This document shows positions 16,467 to 64,000 of a stretch of 64,000 nucleotides of DNA, piece by piece. Below the pieces are notes generated by a model. It had not been told where the DNA came from. It saw nothing but the letters and a program-made list of their open reading frames with translations, and made no database searches. The position numbers and the translations under genes are program-made. Location: contig OZ076409.1 of assembly GCA_964187785.1 (NCBI GenBank), forward strand, positions 2,854,001-2,918,000, read 5' to 3'. The DNA comes from Amphiscolops sp. MND2022 (taxonomy: Eukaryota). How positions within the stretch are numbered: the stretch's first letter is position 1; each line of letters begins with the position of its first letter.

Positions 16467-16467
16467 G

Positions 16468-16482: not shown

Positions 16483-16568
16483 TGCTACCCATTCTTTTTG
16501 ATGTTACCGTAGACGTTTGTAGACTCTGTTGAAAAGATCAGTGGATTTTACAGAGTTATTTTCGTGAG

Positions 16569-20484: not shown

Positions 20485-20837
20485 GTCTCCAGGAATTATT
20501 ATTTTTTGGCAGCGCCTCGCGTGAAACTAGTCACGTAGTTATAGAATAGAAAAGGAGAAGTTTTATCACGCTCAGGATTCGGCTAGTGCTAGTTGACAAC
20601 TCGGCCAAGTGATTATTAGATTCGTAAGCTTTGACGAAAACTCAAAATTAGATTGTTCAGCAAACAAAATCGTTATTGGCAATAAGCGCAAGCCTCGGAA
20701 CTTTGTCAAGAGATCTTGGCAAAGCAGAAACAATTATTTGCTCAGTAAAAAGCTCTCTAAATCAACTTTTGGATAACGAAGCCTTGATCATAAAAAATCA
20801 TTATCCGTCATTCGATACTCAATATCCGATTGCATAG

Positions 20838-21140
20838 ATGCCGTTTAGAAAACTAAGTTTCGTTTGGCCCCTCCCGATATATGCCACACCAGTTAGACTG
20901 GACTATATTAGATGTTTCTATGATGGTGAACCTATCAGTGCAACCGTTTATCGCCGGGACGTTATCCGGTTGGAAGAAATTACAATAGCCCCCTGGACAT
21001 GGCTCTGGAACGAGCTGTATGCCTTTCTGGGAAAATGGGCGAGGAACGAAACTCAGCGAGAAAGCCAGGAGTACGAGAGCGTATTAAACTTGGTTCATTA
21101 CATGGAGGGATTCCTGCGACCACTTCTGAGGGGCAGCTGA
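20838..21140 (+). CDS. Small sense ORF (100 aa) before element B 3' LTR, unknown function
   Basis: ATG-initiated, globular-looking composition, GC-richer than flanks. Confidence 0.4.
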   Translation: MPFRKLSFVWPLPIYATPVRLDYIRCFYDGEPISATVYRRDVIRLEEITIAPWTWLWNELYAFLGKWARNETQRESQEYESVLNLVHYMEGFLRPLLRGS

Positions 21141-21503
21141 AGATAAATAGGCTCGAAACAGTTAAGGAAGTTTTGAAAATAATTGAATTGGAAAGAAATG
21201 GATTTTTGGATCTTGACTTTCATTTTTCATCGGCAATTTTTGGTCTATAGACAAGCGTCCTATTGTCCCATACCGAGCTAAGGCGCTATTACTTTAATGA
21301 TTTGATCTCTCATTTATCATTGTTTGGAAATTTTTTTACTTGTTTCTTATTAGTGTATACCTCTAAGGATTGGTGCTATCAACCGCTTTTCAAAATCATT
21401 TTTACCAAAGCTGAACCCCTCATCATAACGTGTATGTTTCACCCAGATCCCACGAATCAGCCAATGAAAACCATGTTAAGTTTATTCGGGAGAATAAACA
21501 CCC

Positions 21504-21515
21504 AGAAGGAAAGAG
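21504..21515 (+). promoter_or_regulatory. Polypurine tract of element B
   Basis: AGAAGGAAAGAG abutting the 3' LTR TG. Confidence 0.85.
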
Positions 21516-29700: not shown

Positions 29701-32700
29701 AGACAAACCCTACAACGACATAGTACTTCATCTGGAACGGGAAATGCGTCTCAATGGACTAGGAGCACCAGACGAGGTAACGTTAGTACCCCTGAACAAA
29801 ATCGAACTTGCTCAAGCAAAAACTGAGCCTAAACCAGCCGAAAACACCGCTCAGACCACCAAAAAAGGGTACTGCTTTTACTGTAATAAATTCGGACATT
29901 ATAAAGCTGAATGCCGAAAAATGAAAAGGGACAAATGGATGCAAACCCGCAGAAACAACGGGCCGAGCAACCACAGTGCAGGCAAACCACCCAAATGCGA
30001 CACCTGCGGCAAACCACACAAAACAGAAGACTGTTGGAATGGAGCCAATGCTGCCAAGGATCCACGACCCAAGCGCCACAACACACAAGAACGTAAGATG
30101 GACACCTCTGCCACACAACCAATGAACCAACAAGAAGATGAATCAAAAAACTAATTACGCCGCGCCTGCGCTTTGGGGAAACAGTAGACGCGAGGGCGTA
30201 TTCACCAGAAGACCCCTCTACCATATACACAACCGATACAACAACAAGATGCACTGACACTCCAACAGAAAATTGGCTGAGACAACAAGCCATCGCCTCC
30301 ATTAAGAGACCACCACCAGAAAAAGGCCAGGAAACAACATTCCCCCAAGATCAAGATTACAGAAGCTGTCATCAAAATCACACAAACCCATTTTCTCAGC
30401 CAACCACCAACACCAAGGAACTCTCTACTACAACTCAAACAGACAACAATGAAAACGCCCCCGACGACAACCCCACGTCACAAACGACCGAGGAAGTTAC
30501 GCACAAAACCACCATGACATCTGCCTTCCCCATCGCACTCAACTCAATCAAAGAGTACATAACTGAAAGAGACGGAGATACCTACATACCTCTCCACTCA
30601 ACAATAGTCCTCAAGAACAGAAGACGAATGCTTTACTTGCCACTGGAATTTGGAGAACTAACAATGGACGGCCTCGTCGACTCAGGAGCGTTCATCAATG
30701 CCATGTCATGGTCTGATTACAACGCCATTAAAATGAACAGCGATAATTGCGTCATAAAGGAGTACCCACAACCTCCCTTCAAAATTGAATGTGCAAACGC
30801 GCAACTAGAACAACCTATCGCCACAGCCGATATCCAATTCAATATAGGAACATACACGTTCACTGACACCTTTGTCATACTATCAAAGACCTCATTCCCC
30901 ATAATTGGACTGAACTTCATGAGAAATCACCGAGCAGTGATAGATACAGCCAATGGGACCATCACCCTTCCCTCATGTCGAAATGACATTAGCCATGACA
31001 GATGAAAAGAAAAACTGTAACCCCAAACCACTCCAAATCATGGCTGAAGGGAACCAGACACTGCCTCCACAACAAACAACAACCGTAAATGCAATAGTCA
31101 TAACTACAAATGCAATCGACATCACAGGAGCAGTACAACCGCTACCACAGTTTGACGAAACAGCCACCATCATCGTCGCACCAGCACTAGCCACAGCTCA
31201 CAACAAACGAATCAATTTACGAATAGCCAACTTGACAGATTTCCCTCATACCATAGAAAATCACACCAAATTGGCAGAATTGCAAATCTTGCGGCCAGAG
31301 GACACCAAACAGATACAACCCATAGACGTCGCAACGCTAACCACCCTACAAGATCCAGATGACACACATATGTATGTGAATGAGCTTATGAAATCCACAA
31401 ACAATGAACAAAATGACCAAAACCTCTGGTTCCCAACGCCTGAAAACCCAGGGAACGAGGATGAACACACGCCAATACAAAAGCGAATATTAAAAGAAAT
31501 TAGAGAACTCATCAAGAAAGAACAACTCGACCCCACCAAAGATTCAGATTCAAGAAAAGAGTTTCTCGACATGTTCAAATGGGAAGGATCACAAATTGAA
31601 GGCAATGATAAGAAACAATTAGAACAAACAATAGTTGAATACAATGACATCTTTGCACGTCACAGACTCGACATTGGCATCAATAACAGTTTCAAAGTGA
31701 AGCTGACGCCAAAAGACGAACGCCCCATATACACGCAGAGCCTACCAGTACCGATTAACCTCAAAGAAGACCTAACAGTTGAACTGGCCCTCATGCATAG
31801 GTACGGCATAATAACAACACTACCATTTTCGAAATATGCCAGTCCAATTTTCGCACAACGTAAACCAAATGGTAAACTACGTCTACTCGTCGACCTACGA
31901 AAAATCAATGCACTGATATCCGACGACTATATCAACAATAACCACCCAGTCAGTACCCTGTCGGACGCAGCCCAACACTTAGCCGGGAAAAAGCTGTTCT
32001 GTAAATTAGATTGCTCCCAAGCATACCACTGTCTACAAATGGCAGACCAGAGATCAATCGAAATGCTAGCGTTCAACTTCGCAAGCAGAACGTTCGCCTA
32101 CAAACGACTAGCACAAGGACTGAGTAGAGCTTTATCAGCATTCTCTAGTTTCATGAGAGAATATTTAGACAAAGTAACCAAGGCTGATCAGTGCGCGCAA
32201 TACGTAGATAACATCGGAATAGCTGCAAACTCCGTGACGCAACTGATACGGAACATTCGAGCTGTCTTCGAATGCATCAGACAAGCAGGACTCAAACTAT
32301 CCATCGACAAATGCCACTTTGGAGTGACCGAGGTCGAATTCCTTGGAAGAACGATCACCCCACAAGGAATCGCCCCCCAAGACCACAAAATCCAGAAATT
32401 CTTAGCAAACGTACGATTCCCGAAATCAAAGAAACAAGTACAGAGATACATAGGCTTTGTCAACTACTACCGCAACTATATCCCGAGGTTGTCTGAGAAG
32501 CTACTCGGTTTCTACGAACTACTGAAAGCTGACAAACAAATCAAAGTCACAGAAGATCTGTTGGATCACTACAAAGCGATCAACGCAGCGCTAGCGGAAG
32601 CATGTGGACTAGCCCTCAAACAACCAATCACAGGACGACAATACGTCCTAATGACGGATGCTAGTTTTCGTGATTCAGGATACGCGTTAATGATCGAAGA

Positions 32701-35700
32701 AGAAAACGACAAAAAACTCAATTCCAAAAAGAAAACTTTTGCGCCTGTAGCATTTGGATCAAAAGTATTTTCACCAGCACAACTGAAGATGTCAATCTAT
32801 TGCAAAGAATTTCTGGCAATCTACCATGCGTTCCTAGAATACAGCCACATTTTGTGGGAAACAACCCTACCAACTCTCGTAATGACAGACAACAGATCAG
32901 TAACGAGGTTCTTCCAAACAAAAGCGATTCCCCCCACGCTATGGAATGCATGTGACTATGTTGCAGATGAAGAACAACTCTTTTTCCTCCCAGAGGAAAC
33001 GATTGAAACAGAAGAGGAAATCCTCCTACAAAAAGAACAAGCAAGACAAAATGCACGAGACGAGGAGACGACGAAAATAAAGTTGTCAATAAAAGAAACA
33101 ACCCCAATCCCAATAAACAAGGCATCATACACCTTTGGAGCAATCAAAGAAGATGCACGCATTAGAGTTGAACAAGATTCAGATCTAGTTTTCAAAGCAA
33201 TCAAAAGAAAACTGATCTGTGAAGAATACGACAAACACCTCTTACAAACAGATCTGAAAGCCAAACGCCTCTTAGTTCACGAAAATAGACTCATCGTCAA
33301 AGACGGAGTACTAATGCGCAAATACTACGGAGAATGCGGTCAAGTTACAAACAACCAAATATTAATCCCCGAACACCTGATTACAGAACTTCTGAAAGCA
33401 ATCCATGGACAAATGGGAAAACACCCAGGAATCACAAAAATGATCCAAGAATGCCGATCAAAGTACTACTACCCTGGCTTAGCAAAAAGAATCAGACAGT
33501 GGATAATGCAATGCGAAGATTGCATCAAATACAAAAGAATCAACAATAGCCAAATCCGACCGAAGTTGATCAACAACACAGAACACGTATTAGGACCAGA
33601 AGATATACTCGAAATCGACATACTGCCAAACCTACCAAACTCTGCAGGATACCAGAACTTTGTCACAATGATCGATGTATTCTCACGTTACCTATTCGCA
33701 TACCCGACGCAGAATGCCACTGCAAAAACAATCGGACAATGCATCGTCGACGTCATGACCAGACATGCATATCTGCCAACTTTAATTTTGTCAGACAAAG
33801 GCTCACAAATCAGATCAGAAGTCGTCGCAGAAATAACGCAAATCCTTGAAATTCAAATCAGCCATGCGTCCACAAAACATGCACAAACAATCGGAATTTT
33901 GGAAAGGACACACGCCTCAATCAAGACCGCACTCAAAATATCAACGGGTGGAAGACGTTCAATGTGGCACAAATACGTCCAAATCGCAGTCATGAATTAC
34001 AATACGACGTACCACGAAACCTTAGGATGTGAACCATCTACAGTATTCCACGGACGTATACCCTACAATGTTCTTGATTTAAAATTAGGCATCAAGCCAA
34101 AGTGGAAAACAATGCCCAACTCGGACATAGCAGAGCAACTACAAAAGCAAATTGACGAAGTGCGGGCGACAGCGAAAGACAACATCATGCTGTCTTACCT
34201 CAAATACAAAAAATATTACGATCGCAAAGCGTCAGCAGCTCCGCTCAAAGTAAACGACTACTGCTATATCCTCAACCCAAAAGCCGACAACCAGTCGACA
34301 AAGTTTGCGTTTCAAGATTGCATCTGGACAGGACCGTATATTGTGATAAAAATACTATCCAACAACAACTATACAATACGAAGACTTGGCACACGATACA
34401 CACAAACATTACATAGGATCAGAGTACGCCCTTACGTGCCAGAGCAACGACTGCCTGACGTCACAGTACGTACAAATGACTACCTTCCTGATCCGAACGT
34501 CAAAGTGTCACACAATGAGTGGTACGCGGTATCGTGGGAAATGGATTTCGGAAAACAGATTGACGAACACGAAACATTAAAAAGTACAGAAAACAATCGA
34601 CACACAGAAATACAAGAAATGACAAATACGAACGACGAAGACACGACGTCTCAAATGCCAAGGAACCAAACTGATGACACAAATGACGAGGCGCCGCCGT
34701 CTCCGGATTTTTCAAATCTTACTACAGACGTGGGGGATAAACCATACATACGACGCCCCCCACCCATTGAAAGTCCACCTATTCCCCCAAGATCACCGCC
34801 TACAACTATCGGATATAACCCGAGAAAAACAGCAAAGTATAACCTGAGACCTAATCCTAAGCCTAATGCAAATCCTGAGTTTCGACGACTTGACGCTATA
34901 ACTACAACTTACTAAATGAAAAGACAGTATCAGTAGTCCAAACCGAACCGGTCTGACGATTTTCAATTGTAGGCATACTACGGCCTGAACGAATATTTTT
35001 TTCTCTACCTTTTTCTTTTCAACTGCAGCATTTGGAATATCATCCACGCCAGAATAATACAAAGATACAAAAGAAAGCAACAATTAATACAATCTACATT
35101 ACAACGTCACAACAAAGCAAGAGTACTACAATAAACATGGAAACTGTCTTAAAATAAAAGTCACTATTTCTTCGAGCTAGATTCACCACTTTTACTGGCA
35201 GACCTTTTGGACTTCTTCTTGACCACCTTCACAGGCTCCGGTACGACTTCGAAACCACCACGAGAAGCATCTTTCTTTCGCCCAAGCAAAGACGCCAGGC
35301 TACTGTGAACACGCGTCTTACTCCGCCTAAATGAACTGGTATCACTTGAACTAAGCATAGGAGGGAGAGACGCAGCTGACGCAACACTATCTGACAATAC
35401 ATTTTCATCGCCACCAGAACGCAAACCTGGGTTCAAAACATCAGGAGCGCAGGTCTGTTGTGAAACCTCACCCCTTTTCCGGTCGACCCGAGTTTTAAAA
35501 AGACCAGTATAACGCTTCACAAAAGCAGCCTGACCTTCACTGCAAATGCCAGTCCAGGGCATTTGTCATAAAAGACTGCGAAGCATCAATTGCATCACGA
35601 ACTTCTTTCATTGTAAACTTGGTAAAAAATGAACTCAGTTTAAAATCAGAAGCAGAAACACAACTTTGCACACCACTAAAACAGGAAGCTATCACCCACT

Positions 35701-38700
35701 CGGACACTTGACAGTTTGTCAGACCAAGATCCACAGAAGGGTAATCAACACGAGGTTTCAGCGCCACCAAACAACATAACTTGAAGACACGAACTAAACT
35801 CTTGCGGGACAAGAAACTGTAATCTGATAACAAGTATTGCTGAGCATCAACAATGTCCTCTGCACTGGCCCCACAATCCTCATGCCGCCTCCGCGCATCC
35901 ACAACAAAGGTCGAATACTCCTCAACAGCCGTCCTCGACTCGGAAGACGACAAACAACCACTTGACTCCAGGACCCGAATCAACTTGCTAAACAGACCCA
36001 ACATGTGACGGTCATCTCCTTCTAATAATAATTCTGGACAAAACGCATAAAGTCCTTGAGAAAACTCCCCAGTCACAGGTTGTTGACCCAGAATAGCGTC
36101 CACCAGCCGGTCCATGAATTTTCGACACTGCTCGCGGAAAGTTCGCCCACTCCCGTCATTACGACCATGTAAAGTCGACCCGAACGAATGGTTTCGCAGA
36201 AAATCGTCAGGAGAAATAGAATCGAACTCGTCCACCTTCTCCGCATCCATATACTCCTCCCAATTGTGCAAGCCTGGGAATGAACTGATTTTCCGGGTAC
36301 GCGACAACAGGCAGTAGACAAACTGGCACACTTCCATGTAGAAATGAAAACAGTAGTCCATGCGTTTGGACAGCAGCTTCTTGAAGGAACAACGATCTAA
36401 ACATAAAACATTACCACCATATATATGAAGTCAACATACCCAAAATCCCAACCTGACAGAACCCATCCAATAAATAGCGAAAGCACAACAACTTACAAAG
36501 CTCCAGGATGTGTAGAAGAAGACCCAATCGTAGCTCACCCACACCATCAGAGTACACAGCCCAGTCAGTGCCTCGCATCTGCAAAAATCAAATATTCCCA
36601 CTAACGTTACCAACACCACACGGGGAAAATAGAGAAAAGAACACAATCAACATGAGAAAAACAACTAAATAGCCAAATACATCGATACTACGAACAATGG
36701 GATATAACTTACCCGGCCAGCCTCAGTTTTGATATGACGCGGTGCACTATCTCTGATGAATTTCCGCACTAAAGTCCACACAGAGAGCAAATCCTTGACG
36801 ACATCACATAGGTCAAAAAAGAGCACTCGTCCAGCAATCACACTCCGTCGCAGTATTGGCAAATCGTCGAACCACGATTCTTGTAGGGCACCACGCAAAC
36901 GCAAAACCAGGAAATCAATCATGGTGGTCACTTCCAAACCACCAAACACCTCCTGATAAGCCTTCTGTACGTCTGTACGAAACACTTATGAGTCCTCTCA
37001 TCCTCGACAAAGAACACACTGTACTCACGAAACGCAGAAATCCGCGAAATGAGCAACCGCAATGCCCGAGGGAAAAGCGCACGGCAAATTATTGAGTAAA
37101 ACACAAACCAAAAATTACATCCCGAAATGCCGAAAGTTACTCCCTATGACTTCTAGCAGACATCAACACAAAACAACCATATACAAATCAAAAGCAGAAA
37201 ATAGAACAGGAAAATTAAGACTCACCAAGGATTCAGCAAGGCTCCAATTCAAACTGTAGAGGGGATTCTCTCGGCCCAAAGTCGCTCGAAAACTCCCCCA
37301 AAGACGCCGCAAGAGAGTATAGCTTCCACCCGACCGCAGCAACTCAACCAGACAATTGATCATCGTCATCAATGGGACACTCGAATTAGCTTGAGTGCAT
37401 GCTGGCAACAGATCTTCCGGGAAGCTGAACCCCTCACTTTTTCCTTTGCGAGGCCGATCACGATACTCCGACAGTTGAGCCTCAGTCAACACCATCGGGT
37501 CCATCAATCTGTTGAAAACTGGCATGTCGTTCTGCACACGATAGCTCACGTCCAAAACCCAGTGTCGTTTACCGAAAAAGTGGCGAGCAAATTCAGCAGG
37601 GCCTCGTGACTCCATCGATACGTCTCGCTGACATATCATACAGTGGAACAACTTATCAGATCCAGTACTTGACCCACTGACGAAGAGCTCAAACACGGGG
37701 TGCCCCGAAACCATGTCGCGTCGCAACCGATTACGAGGACTGTAGGCTCGTTTTCGCCCTCGAGTGGCCCCCTTCAAAGTCGACTCCTTTCTCTGTATCA
37801 ACTCCTCGAATTCTATAATGGACAAAATGCAATTTCAATACAAGACAACAACAAATAAACAATACAACATAGAACCTCCATATGGAGAACAATCATCAAA
37901 AAACAAAAAAAAACAAAAAACAAAAAAAAGAGAGAAAGGAAAACAAACAAAAAGGAGGAGGAAACGATATCACCACAAAGGAAGAGAAACAATGCGGTAC
38001 GAATAACCATCAAACCATACTTACTAGCTACAAATGGATCCATGGCATGTCTCTCAGTGTCTGACTCGACAACCGGTCGCTGCCCTGGAATCAGTGATAG
38101 AATTTTACTGGTAGTAGGTTCAGCGACTTCTTCATCTCCACTGCTGCGCACATCGAACTGAACATGCCTACCACTGCTTTGTGACGTACCCGGACGAAGT
38201 TGCAGCAACTTTCCACACTGCCCAAGTGACTTTTCTTTTTCGGGAGCGGCCAGTAAAGCTAATATACAATAGCAAGCAATATTAAGCAGCACAATCAAAC
38301 CGACTATGGGAAATTAACTTACATAAATCAACAACCAAAACCAACAGTCAACTCACTCACCACGTTTGGAAGCAGGAGAACTGACTCGACTGCCGAATGA
38401 CTGACTGGAACCAGGCAAGAAATCACTGAACCGTGGAGAAGACGTCTTTGCAGCAACATCATCTCCTGGCGTTGTTTCTATTTGCTTGCTACTTCCTTGA
38501 AGAGGGGGGGACAGAATCTCACCTCCGCGAGTCTCTGAAGCCACGGAAGAACGAATCTGCTGTGCGAGAGCTCCCAAAGTCATGTCCAAATCGTCAGACT
38601 GACAAACAACAGAGTCACTAATGACAGAACCAACTCCACCAACAGAAACCCGAGTAGGACCACCTGGGAGAGAGGTTTCCAGAGTAGAGGCGAGAACACC

Positions 38701-41700
38701 ACCAGCAGGGGACGGAATAGATGGCCCAGAAACTGAAATTAAATTCCCGTATTGACGCGTCAGAAAATCTAAGCTGTGAAAATACGAAACAGAAAAGGCC
38801 TATCTGAGAGTAGTATTATTCATAAAAGCTTAATGGTCCGGGGAATGACAAACCCACCTGTTGCCAGCCGACGAACAATATCGCCATCACTCTGGTAGAT
38901 GTCTCCCTCAGAGAACACGAATTGAGTTTCATTGCCGCTCTGAGCGCCGGTGTCACGACAGGACGGAGGAGGTTCCTGATCCATCTCAAAATAGCAGAAA
39001 TCTGGAAAAAAGAGGATATGAAAACAACAATCAAAACTGACGTCACCATAACGGCGACAAAAATGAAAGTTGGCTAATCACCAACGAAATTGACATCGGC
39101 ATAACGTCGACAAAAAGGTTATCAGGGTTAAGAAATTAATCCTATATCCTAAAATGACGTCATCAAAACGGTGACAAAATCAAAAGTTAGCTAAGCTAAC
39201 GAAAATGACGTCATCAAAACGGTGACAAAATCAAAAGTTAGCTAAGCTAACGAAAATGACGTCAGCATAACGTTGACAAATTTGGCCAAGTAAATTATTT
39301 CAATTTACAGCCAATAAAATGCGATGTCGACATAACGTCAACATCTGAAGATTAAAAAGGATTAAAATATTTGAACAGCCAATCAGAATGGAGAGAATTT
39401 TCCAATTTTCTCCTTAACCCAAATTAAAGCAGGAGATCATTGTGGAACAATTAAATACAAACGACAGCTGCAAAAGAAAAGAAACCTCACAAAGAAGATG
39501 AATAATTTACTAGACATTTACGAGTTGATCGACATTTCATCGTCAAGCGAAGAAGAAGGCGAGATCACAAGAGCTTCTACCCCGTTACCGAGGGCCAACA
39601 AAGAGTACCCCAGAATAATTGTCGAAATACTGAACTCGTCAGCGGAAGCTACTGCAGATGAAGAAGAATTCCTCGACCTTTCTCTAGACTCCCTGGAATC
39701 TGAATGCAAAAGAATGAAACTCAGTGAACCCTACACGAGCTTCGAAACAGTGGAATCGGGTCAGTACCCTCAGTCGGAAAGCCCCGAAGAAATAGTAATG
39801 GCCGCCTCCCCAGAGAGCCCAGATGAAAGCTTGTCATCTGACATATTTGTTGTCGAAACATCGGCAAATGATAAGGAGTCGATAACGAGCAGTAAAGTAG
39901 CAGAATATCTCGGAAAAGTACACCAGGAAGACGCTTCTTCTTACTTCAGCACCCCGACGAGAACGCCAAAAAAGATCAATCTTTTGCAGGCAAGCCCTTT
40001 GAATGACTTGGAGAGGAGAGTACAGACGAACACCACTACTCCAACAATCGCCTCACTGCTCAGAGCCCCGGGCAGCGTCAATCTTCTTACAAGAGCGGCC
40101 CTGTCACAGCCCGTTCCCGGTCTGGCTTGTGGTTGCCGACGGCTGAAGATAGGGAGAGGACATGGAAGCAATCTGAGATTCCCCAAATCTTTCTTTAACT
40201 GGTAACTCTAAAACTTTATCTTTGAAATAAACTGTGACTAGAAATGTGAAAAAACATCTAAACCGCGCAAACTTCAACTGGAAATGAAAACAGAGAACAA
40301 AATGAACCAAAATGATTTCACGCATTTCCGGTTAGACGTATTTGTCACGTCAAAATAGCAACATTCGCCACCTGGAAACTAAATTGAATTACATTCTAAA
40401 ACAAAGAAAGCATGGTCTAATCCAAATGAAAACGTAGTCAAAATCATCTCCCAAAAGAACATTAATCAGATCTAAAATAGAAAATACACTGAGATGGCAC
40501 ACCGATTGGTTTAAGCCTTTTTCTTAGAAAGGCAGCTTAATTACTCTTTGAACAGCAATTAAAGTGGTTTAGGACGTCAATACTGCGCTGAGTAAACAAA
40601 GCGGCAAAAGAAATAAGAATACATGTATATTTGTCGTCAGTAGGACGTAGACAAGTTTGAAGGCATACCAATTGACGTCACTGCCTCGCATACGCGTACC
40701 AGCAAATCATTCCAATTATCCGCCTATACTAATAACATTGCTAGGAATCATTCCGCCACTGTGACGTCACTGCACCGGCAGCTAGCGAGAGACTCATTTC
40801 TAAAATACTCGTCAGCATTGCGTCAGACTAGTCAAAATCTCTATTCTGCCAAGAAAACTCGTCAACATGACGTTGACAAGTTTATGAATCTTAAATTCTG
40901 CCAAGAAAACTCGTCAACATGACGTTGACAAGTTTATGAGATTGAGCAAAATGGATGAATTTGCAAGATCAGTTAAGGTTTCATCGCACTAAAGTTGCTA
41001 TCATGCTAAAAGAAAATGATTGCAGACTATTTCAATTCGTACAACAAGTGTAGATGCGGTATTCCCTATAACTTAAAGTACCAACTTAAAGTAGTTTCGA
41101 CACATATAGGATAGTTTAATTCCACGATAATTGATCGTCTCGCAGTTATCAACATCGGGGAATTTCCATTACATAAACCATTTTTCCTCTATAGGAGTTC
41201 ATAGTAAAATAATCAGAAAGTCACAGTTTATGCTTTCAACTAAAGTATATTTTGTACTGAAAATGTATTTTCATATACTTCGCATTTTTGTACTCTATGA
41301 TATTGAACGCTACATTTATGACCAAGGTCATACCGTTCATACTAATTCAGTTGTTGTTATCCATTAAATGCGTTACGTTGGCATTGCAATTTAACAAACG
41401 TTGCTGTTAATTTCGTAAAACTTGTCGCAGTTGTCACGACTTGACCAATTTACTAATGGTGCATTATTTTAATATCATGTTTTTTAATTCCATTTCCAAG
41501 GGACTCAGTCTTTTGCTAGTGCTACAACTCAGTTGTTCCAAACTTGCTATTCTCAAACTATTTTCGTTCTTCTAACCCTGTTGAAAATCAGAAAGTGAAA
41601 ATTGAATTCTTCAAGAATAAATCTTTCTTCAACAATATGTCTACAACACGAAGCCAAAAGAGAAAGAATACCCAGCGAGAAGTTGATGATAACGTAAGTG

Positions 41701-44700
41701 AAGGTTTTGTATCACCAATAAATATGGAGAACTCTTGCCTTTTAGATCAAAACGTAGAATTAGCGGGTCCTTCAAGACCCAAGTCCCCGAGGGTAGAAAA
41801 TAGCTTCTTGGAACGCATAAGATCCTCTCTGAAGGAAGAAATAACGTCCGAGATTAGGGCTCTTTTACTCGAGTCTCAAAAGGAAATGTTGAAACTCTTG
41901 GGATCTGAAACGAAAGAAAACGCAAGAGATGAAGCATCAGAAGAGCTAGGAAATGAAACGCGAAACCTCTATACTCCGACGAAAACAGTGCGAATTAATC
42001 CTACCCAAAACGAAGATCCTAGTATAATTCGTAACAGGAAACTCTGGGTTCAGCACAGAAAAATACAAGATTCGGCGGGCAAACCGTGGTTTGGCACGTT
42101 TTCAGCTATTGTATACCGTCTGTTTTCTCGGCTGTCTCGCGGGGCGGCTTTTTTGACCTTTGCTCTGCAATTTTCTGGCAGGTACTTCGTCAAAAGCATG
42201 CTCAGGATGCCACGTCAGATTTGAACGAAGTTTTCAGAAATTGTCAAAATTTCGTTTGGTTACAGGAGGCCGTTACAATGAACAGCTGAACGGAGGAATA
42301 AAACAGCTCAGGAATATCACCTATTCAATTTTAAAAACAGATTTTTTTCCAACTTCCGTCAATAAAAGATCAAATTTTAAGAATCAAATCCACACCAATA
42401 AATTATTTATAACTTTCACATGGAAGGTTATCCAAGTATGCACTTTTTCGTAAACGTTGATCTATATGATTTGTGTAGTAAGCTTTTCAAGGAACTGTGA
42501 ATAATATGCATCGAAAGTCTTCTGTTTTTACTCGGCACTTTCTGTAAAAACAGACGTGCCCGACTAGTCAGTAGATTAGTTTTACTTCAATTTAATATTT
42601 TTCGTAACAGCACAGAATCTTTGCGAATGTTCCATTTTTCAACGCCGAATATGTTCACGCCGACTGTAGTTAGGATGGTCGCTTCCCGTCGGCTCCCGAC
42701 TTAAGTGGTCTTTATGTGTCAAAGGTCCTCCTTTGGGTTTTTTCAACACTGAGTGACTTTTTTCTCTCTCAATTTTTTGTGAGAACTTTTTGTTTTGTAT
42801 CAAGAATTAATTAACAGCAGACTTTTAGAACGATATTTTTTTGGGCCTGAAGATTCAATCATTGAAATGTATTTATGATGGTTTGCTCATTGAGCTAGAA
42901 AATTTTTTAAAGAAGCATAGAGATATAGCCTTAACTGAAACGTGGCTGACAGAAAATGACTCCATTAACGAATCAACTCGACCTCTTGAGTCGAAACCCC
43001 GGACCTCAGGCATACTTTTTTTTGTTCAGGAATATGTTTCGTACAAGCCCTTGATTTTTGAAACAAAAATACAATGTCCTATAATAGAGGTGGACTTCGT
43101 TAACAACCAAAGATTGTACTTTTGTGTCGTATATGGACCTCAGAGTCACGAGCGAAAAGACTTTTTGCCGCCGTTTGAAAAAGTATTGCATTTTTGAGAA
43201 GCCGAAAACATGATACTGTTATATTTGGAAACTTCAATACTGATACACTTGTAGACTCTAAATCCAGGAGTGATTATGAAAAAGTACTGTATGCAGTTGA
43301 TTTTAAACAGCAAAACTTTCAGCCAAAAGGGTTACCGCAACAGCATCCACTGGTTTGGATATTTTTATCACAGGATTCCAAACGCAAACAATGACAATTC
43401 CCACAACAATTAGTGATCATTTCAGTGTTCTAGGTGAGATACTTCTATCAACAGTTGGAATAAAACAAAAAGCCTCTTTTCGAAAAACAAAAGACCTTCG
43501 TGGCTTTGAAGGGGAAATTGCACTGAAGTTTCTTTTTTCGTTAGATCAAAAAAGTAAGCAGTACCTAATTCGGAGGGAAAGACCCTACGGAGAAAATCAC
43601 CTGATCGGTATTTGAATGTGTTGATCGCTTCGCACCAGAAAATTTATCAATTCACAAAACAATGGAACTGACTGGGTTACAAACAAAGTTAAAAATGCTG
43701 TGACGAAACGCGATAAACTTTTCCACAATTGGGTTTTGGATCCCAGTGATTTTAAGAGGAAAACATATAAAAAAGCGCAATTTAGTCACTTCAGTCATAC
43801 GAAACGCAAAAAAGGCAGCCAATTTCCACAAACGTGGAAAAAATCATCTACCAAGACGATGAATAGAACTTTAAAATGCCAAACACGAAGTAATCAACCA
43901 CATAACTTGAAAATAGAAATTGATGAATTGGACAAGTTTTTTACATATAGGTAATTAACTCTCCTGCCAAGTACCAAAACCACATCATACCATTGATCTC
44001 CCATGTTTTGGTAAGACAATGGTTTTGAATGATACTAGTCCCGATGCTGCACAAATTATTTTAAAATATGAAAATAAAAGTTTTGAATCTGATGACATCA
44101 GAACTGAAATTCACAAATGCTGCTCACCAGAGGTAGAAGAACATCTCTCTAAAGCATTCAATGAATGCCTCAAGATTGGAATTTTTTCATAATGCCTTAA
44201 CATTGCAAAGGTTAAATATATATATATATATATATACACTCTTGATCTTTGCATCTGATTAAATAGACTTTTTTCTTTATTTCTTTTTTGTAAATTCCGA
44301 TGACATGTTTTTCCCATATTTGGGGTTTACGGAATCGTATTTTTCGAAAAAAAATTGGGTATGTTTTGATATTCTTGGAAGCATTTTTGGAGAAAAGCGT
44401 TGTTGAAGGTCACAGGTCCCCTCTTCTAATTTTTTGGCCACTCTGAAGGTTACGAACTTTTCCTTAAAGTCACCCTGCGCGTTTCTATGTGACTTTGACC
44501 TTTTAGAGCTTTGATTGTAGTGGGGCGCCGACTTTAGACTGTCCCATCTTGTTACAATACGGCCTTTTTCCAGATTTCATGTTCTTTTACTATGATCCTC
44601 TTGTGGCAATGTTTAGTTTAGGTTTTGCTGAAACCCCAACTTTATTGCAAATCAGGTAAAAAGTGTTGCTACCTGTGCGACAAGGGTAAGCTCTTCCGAA

Positions 44701-54895: not shown

Positions 54896-55330
54896 TATTG
54901 ATGGGGAATTCCCACACAGCAGAAGTCTCAAACAGCAGAAAATGAAAATTCGGTCCCATTCAGAAGAATATTTCTTTATGCTGCAATCTGATTGGCTGAA
55001 ATTTCAAATCGAATTGAATTCACTATGATGAAAACGCGTGTCAGATTTTGTCGGAATTATTATTATAACGTAGTCAGATATGTTCACATACCCCCAGTGC
55101 CCTAAATGCAGGCGCGAAGCGAAGCGGAGCGACGTGCCATATGGCCATGCCTCAATGTTGCTACTTGGCGAAGGGAGCGAAGCGACCGAGCCATACAACA
55201 AATATGCAAACCTTTTCAAATAAATCAAGTTTCTACATACTGGCTGTAACAACACTAAAAGCTAGTAATTTGAATTCTGCTGTATGGGACCGAATTTTCA
55301 TTTTCTGCTGTATGAATAGGCCCCATATTG
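54896..55330. mobile_element. MITE-like element
   Basis: ACAGCAGAAAATGAAAATTCGGTCCCAT / ATGGGACCGAATTTTCATTTTCTGCTGT inverted repeats. Confidence 0.65.
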
Positions 55331-55405
55331 ATCATTATATCATTTTCATCGTCCGTAATTTTAATCGTCCGCATTGCAGTTTCGTATGGCATTAGAGAGT
55401 CTAGC

Positions 55406-55604
55406 TCAATTGGACGACCGCTCAGCTAACCGATTGATATATTGGATGACTATCAGCTGTTTCTAAAATATTATTATTGGTTGATTCAGCTTGCTGACAG
55501 ACTCCGATTACGTCATCATTACAAGTTGAGAGCGGAACTGAAATTGGAATGCGTGCAAAATCGATCAATTGCACAGTCGTCTAACTGAGCGGTCGTCCAA
55601 TTGA
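55406..55604. mobile_element. MITE-like element
   Basis: TCAATTGGACGACCGCTCAG / CTGAGCGGTCGTCCAATTGA inverted repeats. Confidence 0.7.
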
Positions 55605-55748
55605 ACGGTTCCCCGCATTAGAAGCAATTGGTCAAACGTTCAACTGGCCGACTTTGCCGTTAGCTGAACCGATTGAATATGATTGGATGTCCGAAAAAGT
55701 ATTCTCAGTTTTGTTATGCAAAAGTTAGATTGGTATCAAAAGTTTGTT

Positions 55749-58338
55749 TGTGAAGACTACTCGAGTTTTGTATTTATTATTTCCCATTTGAACGGATATC
55801 AAAAGTGAAATGATAAGGAATCAAGACAATCAGCTTCATTTACTGATCTTTGTGAAAATCTTTCCAAATTATAAACTTCGAGTTAGGGCTAATCCCGCCA
55901 ATCTGAAACTTTTTGTTGGCCAATGACGCAGTCGGTCAATGACCTAACAACCAAATCGGGAGCGGCCCAAGTCGCGGCACGTCTTCTAAAATTTACTGAA
56001 AAACATTCATGAGAAAACTCCAAGTGATATAACAATGCCGTAAAACCTCAACAAAAAGTGCAGTGGCACTGAGACATTTTTCGTTCATGCTCTTCTAAAA
56101 CGCCACCTCAATTAACTCCCCCACATCTCCCCCAAACTAGCTCCCCCTAAATTAACTCCCCCAAACTAGCTCATAAAACTTTGCATATAAAGTCCCAAAA
56201 TGGCAAATCATTAAAGGTAACCCTTTTTGTCCTGAAAATGACCGAAATTAGTCGCGAATAACGTTAATGCTTCGTCGAATAAAAAGCAAATATTGTTGTT
56301 AGTATTGTCGTGTGCGACTATGGCAAATAAAAAGAAAGAAACTTACCGTGAAAACACAAAAAGAAATAAACTCAAAACTTGTAATATATAATTTTATCTT
56401 TTGTAACTTGCGCAGTTTTATCTTTATTATTTTCTCGCTTAGCTCTGAATTTTGAACACGCTCGAACGTGTTCACTCCCTTGTTCAGCTCAGCGACGCTG
56501 CACACATTCCTTATTTGGTCATGACGTCAAATGACATCATTTTGTCGTGCACGCTACGCCTGCGGATAACACATACAAAACGCTTTCGTTTGTATAGTCA
56601 TTTGACTTGACGTCATATGATGTCATGCTCGTCAGCCAATCACGATAGTGATTCGATTTTATTGGCGGACGAAGCGGTCAAATTTAGTATAAAAGCAGAG
56701 CGAATTTTCAACTCTCAGAGCTCTTCTTTTGGAATAATACTAAATCGACAAACCCGACCACTCCAACCTCTCAATCTCTTTGCACGAGTTCAACTCCCAT
56801 CATCAGCGGGGCGCAGTAATTGTTAGTTAAAATCTTTTTCAATTTTCTTTTCGGAGCTTTCATTTTCGCTTTCATTTTTTTTCTAAGTCTTTTTCTTAAT
56901 TTAAACTTAAATTAGCAAAACTTAAAATTTTACAAGTCTTGGCTCAATTCTATCTTTGATAATTCTCAACGTTGCTTCAAGTAAAGCAATTCTAACTTAT
57001 ATTTTTTGTCAAGCCTGCTTCCTAGCTGAAGCAAATTCTATCTTTGACAATTCTCAACGCTGCTTCAAGTAAAGCAATTCTAACTTATACTTTTTGTCAA
57101 GCCTGCTTCCTAGCTGAAGCAAATTCTATCTTTGACAATTCTCAACGCTGCTTCAAGTAAAGCAATTCTAACTTATACTTTTTGTCAAGCCTGCTTCCTA
57201 GCTGAAGCAAATTCTATCTTTGACAATTCTCAACGCTGCTTCAAGTAAAGCAATTCTAACTTACACTTTTTGTCAAGCCTGCTTCCTAGCTGAAGCAATT
57301 TTGTCTTTGACAATTTTCAATACTAATTTTCGAGCCAAAACATTTTCAAGCCTGCTCTTAAGATAGAGCAATCATTCTCTTATGTTGGAGTTTTAGTTGA
57401 CTTTTGACTTCGAACAGAAGCTATTATACCGTCTTTGTTCAACAAAGATTGAATAGTCCCTACTTTATAGTGGACTTTAAACCAAAGTCTGGTGATATTC
57501 ACTGACTCTAAACTAAAAACCACAGCCTCAGATGGGTTATAAGAGACTTAAACTACTTAGCTATTGTCTGACTCTTCAAGCCGGACCGTTCTCAATTTGA
57601 GACAAAGAGTAGCCGTATAGCGCTCTATAAAAATAGTACGACGAAGCGTTGTTCTAAAACCAAAGGATAGCGATTCGCTGCCTTTCCCAGTCCGTGACAA
57701 TCGGTGGACTATAAACGCCGTGCAAGCCATTAGCTGCACTTTAGAAGAGAGGTTCGCCCTCTGACTTAATAAAATAAAACATAGTAAAAACTTTACGGCT
57801 TATCCTCTGATAACTTATTTCAATAACCTTCCCTAGTGACTTAACTTATTTCATTTAAAGATTGATATTAAACTAGATTTAGTTATATTTTGTTTATTTA
57901 GCCTAATTTGTTTGTTTTGCTTTTGTATAACTGATGTCTATTACAACTTTAGTATAAATAGAGAAAGATTCAATTCACCTATTTCTGAATCCAAACATTC
58001 TTTTCTCCCGGGTCGTAACAATAAAGTCCTTCCAATCGAACTCGCGCCTGAGACGACATTTGTTGAAGTGTAAGGAAGGCACAGTCGCGGAAATTTTAAG
58101 TACCAGCATATTTTACTTTTTCGAGCAGAAAAATAGAAGAGAAACAAGCTAAGAGTTCACGAATTAGACGATAATTGAGGCTTATAACTACCGAAATTCA
58201 AAGAGAAAAACTGAAGGAAGAAAATCACTAATTTTGAATATTCTTAGAGAAGTTTTCACTAATTGGAAAAAAGATATAGATTCATCAATCTTCCTACCAA
58301 CTTAACAAGCAACGGTACAAATTAACAAGCACTTCACA
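55749..58338 (+). repeat. Putative 5' LTR of element D (~2.6 kb)
   Basis: TGTGAAG...CTTCACA termini, PBS 3 nt downstream, TGACGTCA/CCAAT/TATAAAA cluster ~56520-56695; second LTR not in window. Confidence 0.5.
56946..57320 (+). repeat. 88-bp tandem repeat, ~4.3 copies
   Basis: Units start at 56946, 57034, 57122, 57210, 57297 (partial). Confidence 0.95.
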
Positions 58339-58341
58339 AAC

Positions 58342-58358
58342 TGGTGCGACCAGTGAGG
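58342..58358 (+). promoter_or_regulatory. Element D PBS (TGGTGCGACCAGTGAGG; tRNA identity uncertain)
   Basis: TGG after ...CACA-AAC; TGGTGC-N5-GTGAGG pattern of tRNA 3'-end complements. Confidence 0.65.
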
Positions 58359-58370
58359 CAAACCCAATTC

Positions 58371-58493
58371 ATGATAACTTTGGAAGACCCGGACTACTCA
58401 CTAATCTGGTTTCTGATTTTCTACCATCTTGTCACTAGTTTTATTACACTTGTTGTAAAACTAACTATCTGGACGATATCAACGCACCTCTAA
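58371..58493 (+). CDS. Leader micro-ORF 1 (40 aa), predicted single TM
   Basis: MITLEDPDYSLIWFLIFYHLVTSFITLVVKLTIWTISTHL; below ORF-track cutoff. Confidence 0.55.
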   Translation: MITLEDPDYSLIWFLIFYHLVTSFITLVVKLTIWTISTHL

Positions 58494-58507
58494 AATAACT
58501 GAGGTCT

Positions 58508-58660
58508 ATGATAACAGTGATAACTCCTGAAGACCCGGATTATCTACTCATTGCTGGAATCTTTCTCGTGTTCATCACCCTTGTCACCTGTCTTTGTGCA
58601 CTTACTTTCAATTTTGCTATTGAAAACTCAATTGCAGAATATTATTCATCTACACCTTAA
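58508..58660 (+). CDS. Leader micro-ORF 2 (50 aa), predicted single TM, paralogue of micro-ORF 1
   Basis: MITVITPEDPDYLLIAGIFLVFITLVTCLCALTFNFAIENSIAEYYSSTP. Confidence 0.55.
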   Translation: MITVITPEDPDYLLIAGIFLVFITLVTCLCALTFNFAIENSIAEYYSSTP

Positions 58661-58709
58661 CTAAGATAACTTCAATCACAAGAAGACACAAACTGTCACA
58701 AATCTGAGA

Positions 58710-59975
58710 ATGGCTCAGAACGCAGTCTCTTTCCCCGATCTAGCTTTGGACAAGTTCTCTGGGAACGACCCAGACCAAGATGTTAAATCATTTCTTCTGA
58801 CAGTAGAAAACAAGATAGATTTTTCACTTGGATCACCCCCAAATGCAGCTGATGATGCAGCTAGATATCTCTTCAGAAAGAAAGCACTTTTCTCATCTCT
58901 CCTCCGCGGACCAGCCGCAGAATGGTACGAAGGATTTAACGTAGGTAACCCACTACCTACTTGGATTCAAGTCAGGACAGCTTTCATAACTCGCTTCTCA
59001 GATGACAGAGACAAATACAGGCACAGAATAACTGCTGAAAACTGTGTTAGAGGAAAAGAAGAACTAGTCAAAAATTTCTATCATAGAGTCAAACAAGCAG
59101 TAGACAAAGGATGGCCTATTGATGCAGCAGCCAATCAAAATGAGAGAGATGCTCAACAAAACTTGAGAAATCAGAAGTATATTGACTTCACAATCAGAGG
59201 ACTAACTCCTTCGGGACTTAAGAGGAAAGCTCATGAATACCTGATAGAACATCCAAATACAACATGGGACAATTTCAAAGACCATGTCGCCAACAAAGAC
59301 TTGATTTACTCAGTAAGTTCGGAATTTGTACCAAACTCAACTAATGAGCAGAACTCTAAACTAGACTCGTTAGAAAAACAAGTCAGAGAGCTTTCAACAC
59401 TTCTGAAAGAACAACAAGTTAATGCTTTGAATCAAGCCAACACACGAACCAATGATGTGAACAATAAATCCAGACAGAATGCCACACGCTTCTGTCACTA
59501 TTGTAGACGAAACGGGCACACTCTACAATATTGCAGAACTAAAGCTTTTGATGACGAACGAAAACGCCAATACAATCGTGAGAACCAGCAGAAAAAGCCA
59601 ACGTTCACCAATGATTACAACAAGAGAAAGGGACCGAATTTTGGATCACACAACTACCACAACTCAAATTCTCAACACAATTCCAACTCTTCACAAAGAT
59701 TTGGTAACAGTTATAGTCAGCCGTACAATAGAAACCAAAATTTCAGCAATCAGAATCATAACAACCAGAGTAACTCGAATCAAGGGCAGAATCAACGAAC
59801 AGGGCAAAATAACTACAACTTTCCCGCAAGGCAGAATAACAACTCCAATACTCAGTATAACAGAAATTTCCCTCAGAACAATTCTAACGCTCTCTCTAAC
59901 AATGTGCAATTCATTGATGACGACTCGCAAGAGATGATAAACTCAATCTCCAACTACTTTGCTTTAAACTACTAA
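58710..59975 (+). CDS. gag: Element D gag (421 aa)
   Basis: KFSGNDPDQDV...SLLRGPAAEWY capsid pattern; CHYCRRNGHTLQYC knuckle; N/Q-rich tail. Confidence 0.92.
   Translation: MAQNAVSFPDLALDKFSGNDPDQDVKSFLLTVENKIDFSLGSPPNAADDAARYLFRKKALFSSLLRGPAAEWYEGFNVGNPLPTWIQVRTAFITRFSDDRDKYRHRITAENCVRGKEELVKNFYHRVKQAVDKGWPIDAAANQNERDAQQNLRNQKYIDFTIRGLTPSGLKRKAHEYLIEHPNTTWDNFKDHVANKDLIYSVSSEFVPNSTNEQNSKLDSLEKQVRELSTLLKEQQVNALNQANTRTNDVNNKSRQNATRFCHYCRRNGHTLQYCRTKAFDDERKRQYNRENQQKKPTFTNDYNKRKGPNFGSHNYHNSNSQHNSNSSQRFGNSYSQPYNRNQNFSNQNHNNQSNSNQGQNQRTGQNNYNFPARQNNNSNTQYNRNFPQNNSNALSNNVQFIDDDSQEMINSISNYFALNY
59963..59969 (+). promoter_or_regulatory. -1 frameshift heptamer T_TTA_AAC (element D)
   Basis: GCT TTA AAC TAC TAA; the -1 frame opens pol. 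Confidence 0.88.
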
Positions 59976-62900
59976 GGTCTCCGCAGCCAGATGAAGAAAG
60001 TAACTTCAAATCACGCTTCCATATGAATGTTTTCTATTTTCCCACCGGAGACTCTAAAAAAGATAGTGGACTTGAAATCGAATTCATGGTAGATACCGGA
60101 GCAGCTTGCTCTATCATCAACTATCGCACTTTTTGTGAAATTTCTCAGTTTCTGCAACCAATTACAGTAGTGAGAAGTAAACAAAAGACAAGAACGTACA
60201 CTGGAGAAGAAATACCGATGTTGGGTCATACAACTCTAAACTTTAGTTTTGACTCTGATGGACAACACTGCTTTCAACTCCAACTCTGGATAACAGAAAC
60301 CAAAACAGCAAATCTTTTGGGTATTGAATTCTGCAGAAAATATATCTCCAAACTCCACTTCGATATTCCGGCACTGGAACTTAAAGACACTCCTAATACA
60401 ATTTGCTATGGCAGCCTTTGTGCTACCAAACCTTATCCCTACCTATCACTAATCAGGGCAATACGAATACCGCATCAGATACACATTGATGCTAAGACCT
60501 CTCGTGTCTACAAATATCAACCAAAAGAAGAACAAACTAATTTTGCACCAGGAACTACTTTTATCCCTCATCAAAAAGTAGCTAACTCAGGACTGGACTT
60601 TGTGAATGTACTTTGTACGCAATCAGAACAATACCTACCAATTCTAATGGAGAACAACAAAAACCACCAAATAACTCTTGATAAAGGAATTTTGGGATAT
60701 TCATCGCTGGATATACTCGATTTCGAACGACCGAAATACCAAATAAAAGATTGCGTTAAAATGGTTGACTGTATACTATCTGAGAATGATCAGTATAACG
60801 AATGTTTCCTACTACACTCGACACTACCCCATGAACCAGACTTCAGAGATGGCATACGTATCATCAATGGGAACGATGATACAATCTTTGAAAGTCAAAC
60901 AGCCATTGCTCACTGCATATCGGCAGACGCAAAGATGAGTAAAGGCTTTGCTGAAACTATCACTAACCACATCGGTGGACTACAAGAATATTGCTACAAA
61001 TCAAAAGCTTTTGTTGGTTCAGTTATACCTTTCTGGGACAATGATGCAAATAGATTCGTATACAACCTTGTTACAAAGAACAAGTTCTTTGAAAAACCTA
61101 CCCTTGAGAACCTTCAAATATCGCTTGAAAACATGAAAGGCCACGCTCTGCGCAACAATGTTCACATAATAACAATGCCAAAAATTGGTTGTGGACTCGA
61201 CAAACTCCCTTGGAATGAAGTACTAAAGATATTGAAAGACACATTCACTGACTCTGGAATTCTCATTCAGATCATCTCCAGAAATGAACTAGGCTGTAAA
61301 ATGGCTAACAAACCTTCGAGCTCTATCGAAGATGAAATTGATAACTACACGAACGAATGGACGAATGAAAAGAACGAGCTAGAAACAGACTTCACCAAAG
61401 ATTCAAAATCATGTCAGCCTCCGTGTAAGGAACAATTTCCAATACTGAGACCTAAAGAGTTAAACAATGATCTCATCGACTACTATCTACAGTATCAACC
61501 TCAAGAAATAAAAGACTTCATCAAACAATTCGATTTTCAATACACCGATTTGGAAGATGAAGAACTTGTTATGCTGATAGATATGATCATTGACTCCAGA
61601 GATGTATACTCACAACACAAATTCGATATTGGCCAAACCAAACAGAAGTTCCATGTCACTCTAAAACCAAACTCAGAACTCCGCAAACAACGTCCTAGCA
61701 AAGTTCCACTCCATCTGAAAGATAAGCTTGAAAAACTTCTTGGACAACTACAAGAAACGGGCATCATTAGAGAAATGGGAGACGACGACGAGCTTGGTTC
61801 ACTATTCGTAAATCCAATCATTCTCCTACCTAAAGCTGACTATGTTAAACTTGTTATTGACGCTAGATATCTAAATTCTATCACTGACTTAACAAACTAC
61901 TCTTGGCCACTCGAGCCAGTCCAAATGATTATGACAAGAATCAACGGCAAGTATTTTACAGCAAGTGATCTTTCTTGTGCATATCACCAAGTACCTCTTA
62001 GTGAAGAAACTCAGAAACTAACTAGTTTCATCGTAGGTGGAAAACAATACACCTATCAAGTTGGATTCTATGGCCTTTGTGGACTCCCTCAATGGCTCAG
62101 CCGAATGATGGCGATTAACTTCGAACCACTTGTAAAGAAGAAACAAGCAATCACCTATCTTGACGATAGTCTTCTCCAATCACAAAACAAAGGCGAGATG
62201 TTCACAATCATACACGAATATCACCAACTTCTACGAAAAGGTGGACTAAAAGCCGCACCTGACAAGACACACTTCTTCTTGAGAAAAGTAAAGTTCCTGG
62301 GACACGTTATATCTCAGGACGGAATTCAACCAGTAGCTAAACGAGTACAAGACTTGAAGAATTTGAAGTCACCGGAATGCAAACGAGGCGTAATGAAAGT
62401 CCTCGGATGTTTAGGCTTTTATAGCTGTTATATCAAGAATCTACACGTCGATAGTCAACCGTTCTATGAATTGATAAAAGACACTACACCTTTCAAATGG
62501 ACTGAACAACACGAAACACTTTTCAACCAGATAAAAGAAAGAATCTCAGAAGATACTATTTTAGCAGTTCCTTCAACTGAATACCCTTTTCATATTCACG
62601 TTGACTCTTCGAATGTAGGGACTGGATGTATCTTAGTTCAACAATTTCCAGAAGGAAAACGAATAGTCTCTTTCAACTCTCGTGTCTTTGATAAAGCAGA
62701 ACAAAAAATGTCTACCCTCCACCGAGAACTTTGTGGTATTGTATCTGCACTACAAACCTATGAGCACTACATTATTGGCTCACCATTTCCAATCGACCTA
62801 TACTGTGACCACAAACCCATTCTCTACTTATGGGGACGAAAAGGACAACTTTCTCATCGGTTCTTCAAGTACCAAGTTATAATAACAAAATTTCACAACT

Positions 62901-64000
62901 TGAAGATAATCTGGACGCCAGGTTCAAACTTAGCTTTCCCAGATATACTTAGCCGAAACGTAACACTGTCCGACATCAACAAATTCCAGCTACAGCATAA
63001 AGAAATACCGAAAGAGATATCATTCTATGATGAAAAGGGAGACCAGATGCATTACACTATCAAACACGAAGATAGCCAAGATATCTCATGCAACGACTTC
63101 TTTCCGATAATCTGCCAACATGGAAACGATAGACAAATCCTACACCTAAAGAATGATGGTGACGAACAATATGTCGAAGACTACATAGAAGACAATGAAG
63201 TCTTAGCTACAATACAAGACATGACCGATTGCTTTAAACTCGGCAAGACAATAAACCAATATAAACGACTTTGCTCAGATGTTTGCCCCTACTTCACAAA
63301 TTACACTATCGAAGAGGAAACCTACAGCGAAATTGAAGAACAACAAGATGACGGCTACAACAGCGACAACGAAATAGCAGAACTAAACTTCGATCAGAAG
63401 GACTCCGAATTCTTACACGATTTCTCACTTGCAAACGAATCAATCCGAAGAAACCAGTCACGAAAACCAATTCTAAAATCCAACATAGACTCAGAATTAC
63501 ACCCAGAGGTAGACACAAAGGAATTGATACAAAAATTGAGTGATTTTGCAAAAACTGCTGATTTAGATGTAACTACATTAGTTGAAGAACAACTCAATGA
63601 TCCAGTACTACAAAAAGTACGCAGTTGGATAAAGAAATCAGATAAACGACCAACAAAAACACATGATATCAATCAATCTAAAGCACTACTGTCATACTTC
63701 AACCGATTTGAGCAACTCTTTATAGACGAAGAAACCAACCTCCTATGCTACAACGAGACAGTTCAGGAAACAAGCAAAACTGAGATGAAAATATGTGTTC
63801 CTCTATCATTGTTTCTACCACTTTTCAAACTTGCTCACACACACAGCCACAGTGGTCATCCTGGAATATTTAAGACCTTTGAAAATATTAGACAATATTT
63901 CTTTTGGCCAGGACGATACAAATGGATAGTTTATCTCATAGAAGACTGTATCGAATGTCAAACCAATAAGTCAAAACGTCATGACTTACACGAAGCTCCC
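59963..64000 (+). CDS. pol: Element D pol, partial: protease, macrodomain, RT, RNase H, integrase Zn finger
   Basis: Manual translation (not in the ORF track, consistent with running off the window): FMVDTGAACS, AHCISAD...IGCGLD, ITYLDDS, IHVDSS...CDHKP...PDILSR, HSGHPG...CIEC. Confidence 0.93.

Follow-up and report, generated by a model that had tools for sequence, protein, structure and literature searches.

Two tandem open reading frames (ORF1 and ORF2) located between the PBS and gag of a Ty3/gypsy LTR retrotransposon are best explained as duplicated accessory genes of this element, an interpretation to which we assign a probability of roughly 0.6. Most likely they are translated, as a pair of accessory microproteins of the membrane, and the best reading of their location is that they are positional analogues of sORF2, the small membrane protein of the Drosophila MDG1 elements. 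Both were found in the stretch of 64,000 nucleotides that was analysed (the window in what follows). The original prediction, made from the nucleotide sequence of this stretch, had placed there two ATG ORFs of 40 and 50 codons between the PBS and gag, and both were confirmed in that position (Table 1).

The carrier of the two ORFs is a Ty3/gypsy LTR retrotransposon. Its gag is followed by a pol with the domains in the order PR-RT-RH-IN (Pfam) and the best PDB match is the Ty3 Gag-Pol (E 4e-39). The presumed 5' LTR contains motifs (TGACGTCA, CCAAT and TATAAA) that we take to be promoter elements, and further TATAAA motifs are found at 57626, 57710 and 57953. The PBS begins with TGG, and its first 11 nt (58342-58352) form a 4-bp inverted repeat (TGGT-GCG-ACCA). 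A complement of the PBS that could allow self-priming was looked for within 55001-59000 and was not found. A match to the PBS pattern in one bacterial contig, with no tRNA at that place, was taken as due to chance. The closest gag cluster comprises 153 members; among the 15 listed, 11 have 421 aa and are 96.9-99.8% identical to the window gag, indicating that the family is young and abundant. No relative of the element appeared in viral contigs or, by protein search, in prokaryote genomes. The literature search, which left most subscription papers and Repbase entries uncovered, gave no account of this lineage, of its leader ORFs or of any gypsy pol with a TARG1-like domain. This macrodomain is possibly an eraser of ADP-ribose marks. 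Another stretch of pol (~62950-63750), located between the RNase H and the integrase zinc finger, comprises ~300 partly acidic residues and has no Pfam match. It had also been remarked that no env is visible, which is true but uninformative about its absence: the window is cut off right behind the zinc finger of the integrase, the 3' LTR and target-site duplication lie further on, and the searches recovered no locus that includes this 3' end.

Table 1. Features of the element in the window and, in the last row, of related leaders from metagenome loci (numbered L001 to L007).
Feature	Coordinates	Strand	Description
Probable RNA polymerase II promoter, 5' LTR	56522..56694	+	Two TGACGTCA motifs (56522, 56608), CCAAT (56636), TATAAA (56688), presumed promoter elements
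ATG-poor presumed 5' untranslated region	56720..58370	+	3 ATG against 14.5 expected, 0/1000 shuffles
Tandem repeat in presumed LTR leader	56946..57385	+	88-nt unit, 98% identical; repeat family D1
PBS	58342..58359	+	3 nt past presumed LTR end; single match in window; identical in L006 and L007
ORF1	58371..58493	+	40 aa; acidic head of net charge -3, followed by a hydrophobic helix at ~11-29 and a short tail; ATG in weak context
ORF2	58508..58660	+	50 aa; acidic head of net charge -3, followed by a hydrophobic helix at ~14-32 that has two Cys and by an acidic tail; ATG in weak context
gag	58710..59975	+	421 aa, with a CCHC knuckle; ATG in strong context; Retrotrans_gag E 4.6e-5, slightly under the cut-off
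pol	59921..64000	+	Open to window end; protease, macrodomain, RT, RNase H, integrase zinc finger
Slippery heptamer T TTA AAC	59963..59969	+	Register fits -1 gag-pol frameshift; L001 gag ends with same heptamer
TARG1/OARD1-like macrodomain	60851..61273	+	Between protease and RT; PDB 2lgr, 4j5q, E ~1e-24; Pfam Macro E 2.7e-4
Soluble ORF of relatives, 113-119 aa	L002 270-611; L005 1-327, 372-725, 733-1074; L006 925-1284		Directly before gag

From the PBS to the gag ATG there are only two ATGs, those of ORF1 and ORF2. A read-through fusion of ORF1 with gag was ruled out, since the frame is shared but seven stops intervene. A single transmembrane helix is predicted by hydropathy in each peptide, and the AlphaFold model of ORF2 consists of one helix (residues 10-47, pLDDT 85). 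The best Kyte-Doolittle mean over 19 residues is 2.22 for ORF1 and 2.81 for ORF2, which rank 10th and 1st among the 186 window ORFs of 35-70 aa that start with ATG. Twelve of these 186 reach 2.2, and one such hydrophobic ORF alone is therefore not rare. Two of them within the 352-nt leader were obtained in 0 of 2000 dinucleotide shuffles (for a region picked post hoc), and the ORFs taken singly in 0 and 1 of 2000. The fraction of T at the second codon position is 0.50 in ORF1 and 0.42 in ORF2, against 0.25 and 0.24 at the first. As for topology, charge difference was the sole measure applied: both heads carry -3, and the tails +1 (ORF1) and -2 (ORF2). The best hydrophobic moments, calculated with the Eisenberg scale (unlike the method of the sORF2 paper), were 0.50 inside the ORF1 helix and 0.37 in the ORF2 tail. 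Neither peptide matched Pfam at E 0.1. The atlas search with ORF2 gave a best score of 0.89, under the usable mark of 0.9, a word search with ORF2 among proteins of 27-88 aa provided no candidate, and neither exact peptide was present in the protein collection.

The two ORFs had been proposed to be paralogues and this was borne out, with a nucleotide alignment score of 104 (shuffle mean 58, reached by 0 of 500 shuffles) and a protein score of 63 that none of 1000 shuffles attained. The motif FITLV, which had been pointed out as common to both, is indeed present in the two peptides but at positions that are not homologous, the FITLV of ORF2 being aligned with FYHLV in ORF1. The helix block differs at 25 of 60 nt and at 11 of 20 residues; in spite of this nucleotide divergence (~40%) both frames retain the ATG, the register and the helix. 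None of the 11 replaced residues goes to K, R, D, E, N, Q or P, the outcome of 27.5% of single-base replacement changes (P ~0.03, with His uncounted, of which the ORF1 helix has one). Values of pN/pS were 0.63 (p=0.025) along 40 codons, a comparison in which the tails align poorly and perhaps in different frames, and 0.75 (p=0.25, non-significant) along the first 28, reliably aligned codons. Of the initial argument that diverged nucleotides with preserved hydrophobicity suggest selection, the preservation stands, but selection between the paralogues is weakly shown. Altogether, we regard the retained hydrophobicity of the helix, in the paralogues and in the copies described below, as moderate and not strong evidence of selection.

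Other copies of the peptides could be retrieved. A profile of both ORFs run against 1.84 billion representatives produced five matches, four of them copies (P0219, P0220, P0040 and P0221); the fifth, P0222, is a repetitive protein in which 11 positions were matched and was dropped. A second search among longer proteins gave 35 candidates, including three of the same four copies. Identity to ORF2 was 39/47 for both P0219 and P0220 and 34/47 for P0040, while P0221 was identical to ORF1 at 32/40 positions. The peptides are below gene-caller size and the profile search recovered read-through forms only. All four copies were thus detected as extensions into longer frames, which makes them a biased and probably decayed sample. 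They contain 11 further differences in the helix, none of them disruptive (P ~0.03, ascertainment-biased). P0220, P0040 and P0221 start with the translated PBS region. At the level of protein, without DNA, this set suggests leaders with ORF2 alone for P0220 and P0040 (fused to gag in the latter) and with ORF1 alone for P0221. Such single-ORF copies would imply that the pair is dispensable or easily lost.

A gag profile identified seven metagenome loci among 288 candidate stretches, with gags 49-73% identical to that of the window. In the gag tree (24 rows; P0014 and P0024, lacking the trimming motif, were left out, and alignment A3, which included the gag fragments P0224 and P0225, was set aside) the distant loci, with about 50% gag identity, group in a clade separate from that of the window (100/100). 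Past the PBS, the L006 leader has three ATG ORFs for hydrophobic peptides (61, 43 and 41 aa), followed by a soluble ORF of 119 aa directly before gag. The leader of L002 has one hydrophobic ORF of 43 aa and a soluble one of 113 aa, and L007 represents the L002 type in decayed form (between the two there are 12 synonymous and 4 replacement codons, with 1 skipped). Dinucleotide shuffles reproduced the three hydrophobic ORFs of L006 in 0 of 2000 trials and the one of L002 in 27 of 2000. L005 has three tandem soluble ORFs within the 1090 nt examined, and in L001 and L003 the sequence covers only the end of the soluble ORF. The three hydrophobic ORFs of 41-43 aa are homologous, with pN/pS of 0.50-0.58 (p 7e-5 to 6e-3), and all six pairs of the soluble ORF gave 0.33-0.65 (p no higher than 0.0011); the alignment of these pairs was made at the protein level, a procedure that favours low pN. 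By these estimates both the hydrophobic ORFs and the soluble ORF of the distant clade are under purifying selection. The proposal that the window peptides are small membrane proteins under selection is therefore supported from three sides: the four other copies, the kept hydrophobicity and the constrained hydrophobic ORFs of these distant relatives.

The soluble ORF appears fused to gag in six database proteins and was modelled (pLDDT 84) as a mixed sheet-helix fold. It had no Pfam match and no usable atlas match, and Foldseek gave no match at E 0.001 in PDB or in viral libraries (best Z 4.2), which does not imply a new fold. It was sought in the window and is absent there. Closer to the window, L004 (73% gag identity, within the window's larger clade) has neither an ATG nor a hydrophobic ORF in the 362 nt examined. 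The same stretch (L004 1-362) contains several short repeated motifs like the start of the PBS, and a strong splice-donor-like site ~90 nt before gag. No homology was detected between the window peptides and those of the distant clade, with profile probabilities of 0.5-1%. The best of 30 pairwise peptide tests was matched by 10 of 1000 shuffles, non-significant after 30 tests, and the leader DNA comparisons were matched by 50 to 272 of 300 shuffles. Given these results the resemblances in PxYLL and TxN(F/Y)xI were not accepted as homology. What the window and the distant clade have in common, as far as the sequences indicate, is layout and not sequence.

The preferred interpretation has to be weighed against other possible roles. 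The peptides could be membrane modifiers similar to viroporins or to the Vpu and UP proteins, forming oligomers or disarming host membrane defences without any role in transfer. Their size and single-helix anatomy fit, the ORF1 helix contains His, Thr and Ser, and the arrays duplicate and turn over fast, as counter-defence genes do. The enterovirus UP is likewise a uORF product with a membrane helix, of 56-76 aa and encoded ahead of the main polyprotein (PMC12904569). However, UP is basic (pI 8.5-11.2), IRES-driven and from an unrelated RNA virus, whereas the window peptides are net acidic, and neither a Pfam family nor an atlas match at 0.9 links them to such proteins. We consider this option improbable.

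The ORFs could also be purely regulatory, uORFs that tune the translation of gag-pol and whose peptides are by-products, control of gag having been one of the functions initially suggested. The scarcity of ATGs in the leader persists when the tandem repeat is excluded (2 against 9.9 expected in 57385-58370, 1 of 1000 shuffles). In the window and its relatives, the upstream starts have a pyrimidine at -3 in 8 of 10 cases and G at +4 in none of the 10, and the gag starts have both a purine at -3 and G at +4 in 6 of 7, although the context preferred by the host may differ. The distance from the ORF1 stop to the ORF2 start is 14 nt, and from the ORF2 stop to the gag ATG 49 nt. A leader poor in ATGs, whose upstream starts are weak and whose gag start is strong, agrees with leaky scanning, or with re-initiation, along the full-length RNA. 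The depletion of ATGs was not significant in the leaders of L006, L002 and L007, and a donor-like site at 58070 leaves room for splicing to bypass the ORFs. The start contexts thus agree with an influence on gag, but regulation by itself leaves unexplained the kept hydrophobicity, the codon-position bias and the low pN/pS in the relatives. Besides, 40-50 codons are long for efficient re-initiation. As a complete explanation it also appears improbable.

The closest known system is sORF2 of the Drosophila MDG1-group elements. The unspliced RNA of MDG1 elements has sORFs ahead of gag that are translated (10.1101/2025.03.14.642691), and sORF2 is found in at least 80% of the MDG1 consensus sequences, never together with env (PMC13486581). 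As in MDG1, the window element has sense small ORFs between the LTR and gag that encode one membrane helix, and the relatives pair hydrophobic ORFs with a soluble ORF of 113-119 aa, as MDG1 pairs sORF2 (~70 aa) with sORF1 (~110 aa). There are also differences. The window peptides have 40-50 aa and an acidic head, without myristoylation motif or polybasic patch, and the window element has two paralogous membrane ORFs instead of one and no soluble ORF. In the relatives the membrane ORFs precede the soluble one, whose model is mixed sheet-helix and not helix-turn-helix.

A more specific option is that they are true cell-cell fusogens of the sORF2/FAST family. The position of both ORFs is the one required (sense, upstream of gag or downstream of pol), they have one helix, and the charge suggests that the N terminus is out. 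However, none of the two contains the myristoylation motif MGxxxS/T, the 15 residues that follow the helix include one K/R in ORF1 and none in ORF2 (at least three are required), and their 40 and 50 aa are below the range of 60-210 aa. The four hydrophobic ORFs tested in the relatives also lack the motif and the polybasic patch. The paper that set these rules states that its own criteria miss palmitoylated variants, that two of six fly sORF2 have no myristoylation motif and that sORF2 failed in heterologous assays (10.1101/2025.03.14.642691). Along these lines, the two Cys near the end of the ORF2 helix could be acylated. The list of sORF2-like sequences in the same paper could include similar peptides, though its screen was restricted to arthropod elements and a few viruses (10.1101/2025.03.14.642691). 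The reovirus FAST proteins and the nackednavirus smORF2, as described there (10.1101/2025.03.14.642691), are also small and single-pass, and smORF2 is also upstream of the capsid gene, but they have 75-200 aa and a polybasic region, and most of them an acylation motif, features that the window peptides do not have. The suggestion of a FAST-like fusogen thus failed on three testable features of the sequence (motif, polybasic patch and length), and we find it quite unlikely. To judge from these features the window peptides are not members of the sORF2/FAST family, although they may work like sORF2. Extra non-env transmembrane ORFs exist in other Ty3/gypsy elements, such as ORF1 of the plant Ogre elements, which is far larger than the window peptides. 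Another one, a looser parallel like UP, is ORF3 of the bdelloid Vesta4, which has 220-230 aa and two helices and is the third ORF of the element, unlike the window peptides (PMC5408684).

Finally, the frames could be accidental products of a duplicated U-rich leader segment, e.g., a packaging or dimerisation signal, an idea to which the 12 of 186 short window ORFs about as hydrophobic as ORF1 and the L004 leader, with repeated motifs instead of such ORFs, lend something, but which is highly improbable when composition-preserving shuffles give 0 of 2000, the leader RNA has no excess structure (z -0.89) and both frames have kept ATG, register and helix through the divergence of the helix block.

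If ORF1 and ORF2 are duplicated accessory genes that parallel sORF2 in position, the following scheme could be proposed. Ribosomes would scan the ATG-poor leader and some of them would start at the two weak ATGs, with the remainder leaking past or re-initiating to reach the strong gag start. Both peptides would then most likely be made from the full-length RNA, and any dampening of gag translation would be incidental. From the distribution of charges, the peptides would probably enter the membrane as signal anchors that cross it once, their acidic head being outside or luminal. A role at a membrane step like that of MDG1 sORF2 is more tentative and is drawn by analogy only: the peptides might gather or move capsids at membranes, in a cell-to-cell transfer independent of env whose chemistry would differ from that of MDG1 sORF2. 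Even so, a viroporin or counter-defence function, pure translational control and true FAST membership each appear less likely than this membrane-transfer role. A wider possibility, rather doubtful at present, is that in this lineage the segment from the PBS to gag serves as a polycistronic accessory region able to expand, expressed by leaky scanning and encoding several families of 40-60 aa membrane peptides plus a soluble protein without recognised family. The peptides would constitute in this case a second class of env-independent transfer proteins, non-myristoylated, non-basic, below the sORF2/FAST size and of an origin independent of the insect sORF2.

The spread of a retrotransposon by means of a small membrane protein, independently of env, has been shown in flies only. 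The published screen needed a myristoylation motif and at least 60 aa, and peptides like ORF1 and ORF2 would be invisible to it. If they are translated, they would provide a second and chemically different test case for the use of membranes by elements devoid of env.

The window contains other retroelements as well. A second gypsy-type element (5237-12024, minus strand) has a dUTPase between the protease and the RT. The region 14395-22700 has long direct repeats 7.1 kb apart that enclose ORFs without retroelement Pfam matches, and is possibly a decayed or non-autonomous LTR element. An LTR element of 13 kb (26747-41853, gag-pol at 28604-34915) carries after pol several antisense ORFs of 133-297 aa (35164-38799), with a resemblance of motifs, by eye, to the ORFs at 971-5059. 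Both LTRs of this 13-kb element contain a hydrophobic ATG ORF of 37 aa (27950 and 41297).
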